Positions 62,333-62,584 of a stretch of DNA of 64,000 nucleotides are shown here, piece after piece. The stretch's first letter is position 1. Every line of letters begins with the position of its first letter. This stretch comes from Candidatus Poribacteria bacterium (GTDB lineage: Bacteria > Poribacteria > WGA-4E > WGA-3G), in contig OZ243935.1 of NCBI GenBank assembly GCA_965214045.1, positions 4,354,799 through 4,418,798 on the forward strand, read 5' to 3'. The position numbers and the translations under genes were made by a program. Below the pieces are notes generated by a model, which had not been told where the DNA came from, did not search any database, and saw only the letters and a program-made list of their open reading frames with translations.

Positions 62333-62584
62333 TTTATGACCTCTGGGCTGCGCTCCATTCTATTACGCGCAGGTTCCTGGTTAAGAACAAACCCCTAAAC
62401 TCAAATTGTAGCCTGCAACAACGGCGCAGGCGGATATACGGAAAGGAACCCGTTATTCTTCAAAACCCACCTGACCGAACCGCAAGGAAACATTAAAAAC
62501 CTGCAACAACGGCGCAGGCGGATATACGGAAGGAAACGGTCCTACTCAAACCTTCCGAAACGAACCGCAAGGAAAATTAGAAAA
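62333..62584 (+). repeat. mosaic interspersed repeat copy, longest (E, B, C, B, C) between ilvN and ilvC
   Basis: An internal 35-bp direct repeat CCTGCAACAACGGCGCAGGCGGATATACGGAA(A)GGAA(C) occurs twice. ACCGAACCGCAAGGAAA occurs twice. The copy ends in ...AATTAGAAAAATG at the ilvC start. Confidence 0.7.

Follow-up and report, generated by a model that had tools for sequence, protein, structure and literature searches.

An oriented repeat unit at gene starts in Candidatus Poribacteria, probably a family of duplicative 5′-leader cassettes

Repeats carrying expression signals that are fused to the starts of unrelated open reading frames (ORFs) have been described in Neisseria (REP2) and Borrelia (IR-A/IR-B). 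According to Delihas 2011 (PMC3184786), these repeats have no terminal inverted repeats (TIRs) and contain two stem-loops near their 5′ end. Here, we describe a repeat of similar layout, called the unit below, in a 64,000-nucleotide stretch of Candidatus Poribacteria DNA (contig OZ243935.1, positions 4,354,799 to 4,418,798 of the forward strand). This whole stretch is called the window, and coordinates count from its first letter. The unit is one ordered and oriented block of about 85-92 nt, as seen in 165-189 copies aligned on its 3′ module, named C. Copy-level statistics (C copies, module A) were obtained from 1.1 Mb of Poribacteria loci, in which individual loci are designated by L-numbers. 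We propose, with moderate confidence, that the units form a duplicative family of 5′-leader cassettes that probably supply a Shine-Dalgarno (SD) site to whatever gene follows.

Judged by analogy, the REP2 and IR repeats are the nearest described kind of element. In the same paper they are interspersed, lack TIRs, lie immediately upstream of ORFs and are oriented with them; two internal 5′ stem-loops are followed by a 3′ ribosome-binding site, and the whole looks like a copied 5′ untranslated region (UTR). An earlier interpretation made from the letters of the window alone (the sequence-only reading) had stated that the family seems to fit no nameable repeat class. This was too strong, since a kind with the same layout is described in that paper. 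The likeness is one of layout. Several differences are also apparent. The paper gives a length of 120-150 nt for REP2/IR, as compared to 85-92 nt for the unit, and 26 REP2 copies per Neisseria genome, as compared to about one unit per 6-20 kb in carrier genomes. Unlike REP2/IR, the unit occurs in a candidate phylum, in dozens of its species, and is found in tandem arrays and with other inserts nested in it. A -35/-10 pair could not be recognised, the tail offering only a -10-like NANNNT, and the ATG seems to stand outside the repeated sequence.

Other small repeats resemble the unit less closely. Mycobacterial MIRU elements are 40-100 bp long, lie within operons in the direction of transcription and are carried on polycistronic mRNA. 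At their ends they meet the stop and start codons of the neighbouring genes; relatives may have a given site filled or empty, and tandem copies occur. However, MIRUs contain small ORFs overlapping both neighbours and show short direct repeats at filled sites, neither of which is usual for the Poribacteria units, and the unit has an invariant SD core. The units do share the orientation and the intercistronic position found in operons, small ORFs overlapping flanking stop or start codons being only occasional (a 10-codon ORF at 51472). Correia, ERIC and BOX elements are likewise small transcribed intergenic repeats able to alter the expression of neighbours, and BOX is modular; in contrast to the unit, Correia and ERIC have TIRs, and all three occur in either orientation at no fixed distance from start codons. 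Finally, the unit has neither TIRs nor target-site duplications (TSDs), unlike a true TA-duplicating MITE (a miniature transposable element with inverted repeats) present in the same window (10329-10419).

The family was found well beyond chance in the window and in many other genomes. Matches to CCGCAAGGWAWNATTARAA with at most two mismatches occur eight times in the window, all on the + strand, as compared to 0.02 expected in a shuffled window. A ninth module C copy, at 62565, precedes ilvC. An unsupervised repeat search of the window recovered the same families, including inverted copies near 10.5 kb, and the eight intergenic sites listed in the sequence-only reading all carry the sequences given for them. 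A profile scan resolved these into seven full units, two 5′-truncated copies keeping only about the last 30 nt and one reversed variant unit (Table 1). Among one genome per species, an exact-pattern scan returned at least 115 8-kb blocks; among the matches listed, 112 came from 34 Poribacteria-type assemblies, and these block and assembly counts are lower bounds. Three further blocks among those listed, from Bacteroidales, Flavobacterium and Vagococcus, are single chance matches. The unit family is thus phylum-specific and occurs in many Poribacteria species. Carrier assemblies include many closed chromosomes of 5-6 Mb, and the window itself encodes an IlvC 92-95% identical to Candidatus Poribacteria proteins. 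The family is genuine and not an artefact, as long-read assemblies made independently contain the same units.

No copy was found in 21 kb of each of the Poribacteria loci L001 and L002, although L001 is syntenic with the window across metG-addB-sodA-ilvBNC. The suspected abundance beyond the window is borne out by at least 34 Poribacteria assemblies. The family is also duplicative, as had been proposed, and does not consist of conserved orthologous UTRs, since it occurs in many genomes while copies at syntenic loci are missing, additional or rearranged in relatives. A scan of the window against Rfam 15 at gathering thresholds returned only a T-box and no family for the unit; at E values up to 10, no Rfam match fell on any unit in 12.4 kb of the window with six units or in 64 kb of unit-rich loci. 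We found no publication describing the family, none linking Poribacteria to repeat elements, and no occurrence of the term 'Poribacteria-1'. The possibility that the unit is a tRNA, a transfer-messenger RNA or a CRISPR array was rejected, as the window contains no tRNA and its sole tandem arrays are unrelated to the unit.

From 5′ to 3′, the unit consists of a (G/A)TAG head, a hairpin (P1), a box, about 20 variable nt, a pre-core segment, the invariant core CCGCAAGG and a 12-nt A/T tail. In the canonical class, the distance from the head to CCGCAAGG is constant at 68-69 nt. In the head/P1 region of 61 units, A4 never varies, and G5 is kept in 90% or more. P1, named B in the sequence-only reading, reads GCCTGC...GCAGGC or GYYYGTAAYGNARTGGARRRC. 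The box position, named F or D, reads GGATATACGGAGAGGCAC, GGATTTAAGAAAGGCAC or GACTCGAACACGAAAACCGTCAA in aligned copies and is written GGATATACGGAGAGG, GGATTTAAGAAAGG or GACTCGAACACG in the unit layout, these three forms being unrelated in sequence. The pre-core segment is CCTGACCGAA, GTTTCT, GTTTAA or CTTAT. Module C corresponds to CCGCAAGG plus the tail. The idea of modules shared in different combinations therefore overstated mosaicism: B, F/D and C are consecutive parts with a canonical order and a fixed length. A C duplicated with a 21-nt period was seen in seven copies.

Two further modules stand apart from this block. Module A (GKTTTTGCTTGGGYRTTTC) behaves as a nested insert in its own right, some 22 nt long and often iterated. 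Its 68 copies in the 1.1 Mb comprise 26 in forward orientation just after P1, 11 reversed within units and 31 outside units. It was observed in either orientation at many loci, in P1 loops, after P1, in other hairpins and in a MITE (window 55408-55442, 58480-58506, 10478-10503). Module A had been credited with a 10-bp stem; at 55408-55442 a bulge interrupts the stem, which is therefore no perfect 10-bp one. Module E is a low-copy hairpin. Both of its copies in the window, at 62333 and 50273, begin, as had been noticed, right at the stop codon of the gene upstream. The module E of the ilvN-ilvC site is also present at the orthologous site in L122-L124. Its 5′ end TTTT(T)AATTT (window 62326-62341 and 50264-50281), which contains the upstream TAA stop, gives the C tail AAATTAAAA when reverse-complemented. 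A long-range pairing of this 5′ end (TTTTAATTT) with the C tail, which a terminating ribosome could open, is conceivable; it was set aside as it was not predicted by folding.

The position of the unit with respect to start codons was then considered. In 100 of 189 C copies (53%), the start of a long ORF lies 11-14 nt after CCGCAAGG, and in 77 it lies at exactly 12 nt. The 100 adjoining codons are ATG in 94 cases, GTG in 4 and TTG in 2. In L118 and L122-L123, independent gene calls for ilvC, ilvN and a third gene begin on the base that directly follows the unit. The other C copies include a share of about 12% lying within an ORF without a canonical start, a share of about 13% followed by a short leader, sometimes with its own SD site, and three copies followed by another tandem unit. 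In the window, the gap from CCGCAAGG to the ATG is 11 nt for ggt, 12 nt for the lactonase gene and ilvC, and 11 nt for the mini-ORF of 10 codons at 51472. The earlier statement that C ends at the ATG in four cases is thus loosely true, although the gaps vary between 11 and 12 nt and one of the four ORFs is this mini-ORF. The ATG keeps its 12-nt distance from the core and yet stands outside the unit where units are in tandem; tmk uses an ATG in the spacer instead. Not all copies adjoin their gene. The hppA unit is followed by a 20-nt leader with its own GAGAGG SD site and then by the hppA ATG at 43599; on its other side, the Mur-ligase gene upstream overlaps P1 with its 3′ end. The copy before sodA lies upstream of a sigma-70-like promoter belonging to sodA (58587-58614) and does not adjoin the start codon.

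These positions fit a role in translation initiation. Ordinary genes of the window carry AAGGA(G) or GAGG 6-12 nt before their start, and ilvC in relatives without the unit has AAGGAA or GAGAGG at the corresponding place. The view of module C as a portable translation-initiation cassette gains from both the fixed 12-nt starts and the fact that AAGGA is the normal SD sequence of this genome. About 40% of C copies have GGT instead of GGA; copies with AAGGA adjoin a start or not in a ratio of 67:33, as compared to 27:45 for those with AAGGT. In fold predictions, the segment from AAGG to the ATG has a mean unpaired probability of 0.69, as compared to 0.44 with random upstream DNA. Under this proposal, the unit would be transcribed as a 5′ or intercistronic leader, the AAGG(A) of the core would act as the SD sequence, and the A/U tail would keep the start region unpaired.

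Some genes depart from ATG at the same slot. The RuvC gene in L030 (ATA-IILGIDPG) and a glycosyltransferase gene in L035 and L043, from two species (ATT-IKILYVIDS), have a near-cognate codon exactly at the +12 position and no other possible start. ATA, ATT or ATC in place of ATG exactly 12 nt after CCGCAAGG was also seen in L063 and L061. These codons suggest that near-cognate initiation may be tolerated behind the unit leader. Near-cognate starts at this slot would need a strong SD-led initiation region, which fits the leader proposal.

The same arrangement could alternatively reflect a promoter cassette, the chief competing reading, which we consider unlikely. The tail would then be a -10 hexamer, NANNNT; copies adjoining an ATG would give leaderless mRNAs starting at the A of the ATG, TATAAT copies would start short leadered mRNAs, and CCGCAAGG with the upstream boxes would be recognised by a sigma factor or an activator. 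The hexamer does end exactly 6 nt before the ATG, with A2 and T6 invariant in 73 of 73 copies, and ATG makes up 94% of the adjoining starts. The invariance of A2 and T6 would, however, also be expected if the copies descend from two founder variants. The TATAAT form of C, in which the sequence-only reading had recognised a perfect -10 hexamer, is distributed non-randomly: it is enriched among copies that do not adjoin a start (4:15 as compared to 96:74, p=0.004), and in several cases (hppA, L114) a short leader with a strong SD site of its own comes after it. Some TATAAT copies may act as promoters. Against a promoter function of the family as a whole, no -35 element was found at any C copy in 43400-63000, though the genome has TTGACA-17-TATAAT promoters, and the -35 position of the unit reads ACCCAC. 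Leaderless mRNAs would not tolerate ATA or ATT starts, and the near-cognate starts at the +12 slot would be unworkable on such mRNAs. Many units are moreover intercistronic within operons, and divergent gene contexts leave at least 100 nt more upstream of the unit. In particular, the ilvN-ilvC units belong to the ilvBNC operon, at whose head stand a consensus promoter and a T-box leader. This again fits the leader proposal, as a promoter before ilvC would escape T-box control.

Sigma-54, sigma-H and -35 elements within the unit were checked by eye and rejected. Textbook sigma-70 promoters with a TG extension were observed elsewhere in the window, TTGACA-17-TATAAT before metG (53421-53449) and TTGACA-17-TATACT before the T-box and ilvB (59538-59566). 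These two promoters indicate that the organism uses canonical -35/-10 promoters.

The RNA structure of the unit was examined by covariation. P1 is a 21-nt hairpin preceded by (G/A)TAG. In 61 units it is 84% paired, as compared to at most 52% when the partners were slid, and shows 61 double-change cells as compared to 18.8 ± 4.4 in shuffles. Compensatory changes are clear at four pairs (6-24, CG 47/UA 12; 7-23, CG 51/UA 9; 8-22, UA 34/CG 27; triloop-closing 13-17, CG 46/UA 12). A second helix, P2, joins three nucleotides of the box to three ending two bases before the core, and closes the variable loop of about 30 nt. P2 was first spotted by inspecting single-sequence folds and then tested. It is 73% paired (slid versions at most 46%), with a covariation score of 0.434 as compared to 0.244 in shuffles and pair counts of CG 26/AU 13/GU 12 at 33-73 and GC 27/AU 25 at 34-72. 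When 91 units that had not entered the seed alignment were aligned on sequence alone, pairing reached 94% in P1 and 73% in P2a (slid P2a 18-42%). RNAalifold on the 61 units retained only a 4-bp core of P1 and a trivial CC/GG pair. Covariation, which had been suggested as a check on the hairpins, is thus strong for P1 against both shuffles and slid partners, and moderate for P2. On the other strand, the frequent G-U pairs would turn into C-A mismatches, suggesting that the structure forms on the sense strand. P1 and P2 may serve to insulate or stabilise the leader, or to define where it ends.

Closely related loci differ in their content of units. L091, a locus from OX639992.1 whose flanking genes are 92-95% identical to the window at the nucleotide level, lacks the whole block 51443-51579 between the lactonase gene and tmk; it has instead the native AAAGAGGAAAATGGCACGA, an SD site plus ATG for tmk, which is replaced in the window. 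The unit before the lactonase gene is kept in L091, while the distant L125 has the site without a unit. Between addB and sodA, a unit is present in the window and in L123, whereas L122, L118 and L001 share the ancestral spacer of about 45 nt that it replaced. Between ilvB and ilvN, a full unit is present in L122; L123 shares this unit but has lost the hairpin, and the window has none. These last two sites thus differ even between L122 and L123, despite identical IlvC. Between nagK and murQ, the unit is kept in L082, and the window has an additional reversed variant unit and an unrelated MITE. The variant 3′ end of this reversed unit, TAACGCTTTGCGAAT, also occurs in L031 and L092.

The ilvN-ilvC spacer records these events in most detail. 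L122-L124 have module E and one unit, whereas the window has module E and two. In L118-L121, an inverted P1 with a compensated stem (GCACGC/GCGTGC) precedes F and C, and the spacers of L001 and L002 are unrelated. Unit 2 of the window is orthologous to the single unit of L122-L124 and to the F-C part of L118-L121. Unit 1, the extra copy, is restricted to the window lineage; it measures exactly one unit and is placed directly 3′ of GTAG. Since the spacers of the two units differ, unit 1 came from elsewhere and not from a local duplication. The 23 nt from CCGCAAGG to the ilvC ATG are identical in three lineages with diverged spacers, which indicates selection on C. Over short evolutionary times, units are gained, lost, truncated and duplicated, and they can overwrite the native ribosome-binding site and start codon of a gene.

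Head-to-tail tandem arrays with a constant junction, ...ATTAAAAA|(G)CCTGC, occur in several genomes. On the reverse strand, a tandem unit reads as a hairpin followed by TTTTTAAT and resembles a terminator for antisense transcription (62499-62519, - strand).

This turnover might instead reflect a selfish miniature element, a reading that seems to us distinctly improbable. Such an element would be non-autonomous and moved by a Y1 transposase (RAYT or IS200/IS605-type), or by another transposase recognising the GTAG hairpin, and proximity to starts would result from target preference or tolerance. A GTAG head with a short covarying palindrome is the REP signature (PMC3733652). Together with the one-unit insertion immediately 3′ of GTAG at ilvC and the tandem head-to-tail arrays with a constant junction, it recalls REP/RAYT or IS200/IS605 single-strand transposition. 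Presence and absence also differ among close relatives, and some orphan copies have no nearby gene. The hairpin is, however, rarely alone or in inverted pairs, being linked to C in 85 of 92 cases. No TIRs or TSDs were found at the units: the ends GTAGCC.../...ATTAAAA are not inverted repeats, and filled and empty sites show replacement of native sequence or a unit-sized addition. A phmmer search of 4385 six-frame ORFs from the 1.1 Mb with E. coli RAYT and IS200 TnpA queries returned no Y1 transposase, a weak test covering less than 1% of the genomes concerned. The invariance of C at orthologous sites amid diverging spacers, with 53% of copies at a fixed distance from a start, argues for selection on a host function. 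The selfish reading is compatible with the leader proposal rather than exclusive of it.

The label 'BIME-like' given to the family does not hold. The REP/BIME elements associated with RAYT in Enterobacteria, Pseudomonas and Stenotrophomonas (SMAG) do share with the unit a GTAG-headed imperfect palindrome, a high copy number, compensatory stem changes and modular clusters. The hairpins of the unit differ from those elements in showing no alternation of orientation, in being linked to a tail of 60 nt downstream and in lying at gene 5′ ends: C follows on the same strand in those 85 of 92 hairpins and arrays are head-to-tail. Inverted hairpins are rare (window 10502-10522, L118-L121).

In some genes the unit has become coding sequence. 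In the window, the spacer and C upstream of the conserved part of Tmk are translated as MKLSSFLRKEKLK. Among Tmk N-termini of 120 Poribacteria clusters, 91 begin MA[RQ]RGIF and at least 17 begin MKPTSF[LI]RKEKLK.GIF, which is translated spacer plus C. The extension (MKPTSFLRKEKLK) is 10-13 residues long and was found in the window (51541-52185), in P0135, P0137, P0161, P0171 and others, and in L125 (2953-3040), while the closest relative of the window keeps the native start MARRGIF. In L125, whose Tmk is 76% identical, a complete canonical unit is fused at the same junction at the DNA level, with a box GAAAGG 10 nt before the internal ATG. Reading through C also occurs in a lipoprotein gene of L050, and in the window the frame of murQ stays open across its unit.

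Several observations weigh against the leader proposal. Twelve nucleotides from the GG is at the long end of SD spacing. Four bases, CCGC, are invariant though an SD site would not need them, and the tail positions A2 and T6, invariant in all 73 copies, would equally mark a -10 hexamer standing 6 nt before the ATG. For about 15% of copies there is no ORF within 90 nt; some lie upstream of the gene's own promoter, as for sodA. The covariation of P2 rests largely on two or three sub-families and may reflect descent rather than pairing, and the whole focal region (the ilvN-ilvC site) folds no better than shuffles (z = -1.42). Finally, that the unit acts at the RNA level is itself deduced from sequence.

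The invariance of CCGCAAGG beyond the need of an SD site could also reflect a regulon, in which a single trans-acting protein or RNA would bind CCGCAAGG with P1/P2 and co-regulate all downstream genes. GCAAGGA and AUACGGA presumably resemble GGA-type motifs of RNA-binding regulators. A precedent exists in Neisseria REP2, for which PMC3184786 reports 14 co-regulated genes. Nevertheless, the genes that follow the units are housekeeping genes of unrelated function, GGT replaces GGA in about 40% of copies, the boxes upstream of the core come in three unrelated forms, and no candidate regulator was identified. We regard a regulon as very unlikely. CsrA-type GGA sites were set aside since, beside the GGT copies, two of the three box types have no GGA.

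A more ambitious version of the leader proposal is tentative, and we think it rather unlikely. The Poribacteria leader would be a self-propagating, standardised one, placed before hundreds of unrelated genes throughout the phylum and served by dedicated machinery, either an enzyme that recognises the GTAG hairpin and copies the unit or a trans factor that reads CCGCAAGG and both helices and so controls many genes together. It would in addition overwrite native starts, allow near-cognate starts and be exapted as N-terminal coding sequence.

Overall, the family appears as a larger and more dynamic case of the rare REP2-type 'expression-signal repeat', and raises at the scale of comparative genomics the question of how a 5′ UTR gets copied before other genes. 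Filled and empty sites can already be compared in dozens of public closed genomes. As Poribacteria are uncultivated sponge symbionts without a genetic system, a leader shared by a sizeable part of their genes would offer a handle on translation start and possibly on co-regulation. At unit sites gene callers are misled, with extended or non-ATG starts for Tmk, MurQ, lipoproteins and RuvC. The unit may also represent a compact natural insulated ribosome-binding site, a candidate part for synthetic biology.

Table 1. Units, truncated copies and associated hairpins in the window
Feature	Position	Strand	Remarks
Reversed variant unit	10422-10527	-	P1 (hairpin 10502-10522), module A, D box, variant 3′ end TAACGCTTTGCGAAT; adjoins unrelated MITE 10329-10419
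Unit at murQ 5′ end	10549-10634	+	TATAAT variant of C; kept at orthologous L082 site
5′-truncated copy before ggt	30404-30431	+	Pre-C segment and C; fills 35-nt spacer; ggt ATG 30432
Unit before hppA	43494-43578	+	D-type middle box; TATAAT variant of C
Module E hairpin	50273-50322	+	CTGCGC 50288-50293/GCGCAG 50307-50312; starts at thiolase stop codon; kept in L091
Unit before lactonase	50340-50425	+	Ends 12 nt (from core) before likely start ATG 50426 (Pfam Lactonase)
5′-truncated copy	51441-51471	+	Pre-C segment and C, then ATG and 10-codon ORF stopping inside next hairpin
Full unit fused to tmk	51493-51579	+	No start codon after C; only conserved in-frame ATG at 51541, in spacer
Module A-derived palindrome	55408-55442	.	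metG-addB spacer; inverted-repeat search; not a full unit
Unit upstream of sodA	58462-58569	+	Module A insert after P1; C with TATCAT variant
Module E hairpin	62333-62383	+	CTGCGC 62348-62353/GCGCAG 62367-62372; directly 3′ of ilvN stop 62330-62332; fold-predicted
Unit 1 of ilvC tandem	62408-62499	+	GTAG head, P1 GCCTGC 62411-62416/GCAGGC 62426-62431, box F, spacer, CCGCAAGG 62480-62487; nhmmer E=1.9e-17
Unit 2 of ilvC tandem	62500-62584	+	P1 without GTAG head, F, spacer, CCGCAAGG 62565-62572, 12-nt tail; ilvC ATG 62585
Full units, profile scan	10549-10634, 43494-43578, 50340-50425, 51493-51579, 58462-58569, 62408-62499, 62500-62584	+	
3′-part-only copies, profile scan	30404-30432, 51441-51471	+	

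Other elements of the region were observed. The true MITE, with TIRs TAGTAAAGCCC... and a TA duplication, lies at window 10329-10419, L091 ~1238-1371 and L125 2834-2948. It shows filled and empty sites, a copy in L091 occupying a site that is empty in the window (52210), and in L126 (1973-2668) an IS630-type DDE_3 transposase gene is found where L125 has the MITE. About 410 nt with a small ORF in L091 (5476-5885) are deleted in the window (47994-48003). The T-box leader before ilvB (96.4 bits) spans window 59651-59941. Between its terminator and ilvB lies a perfect tandem array of 3 x 39 nt (59963-60079), with three copies of the 39-nt repeat in L123, at least four in L122, and none in L118 and L001.

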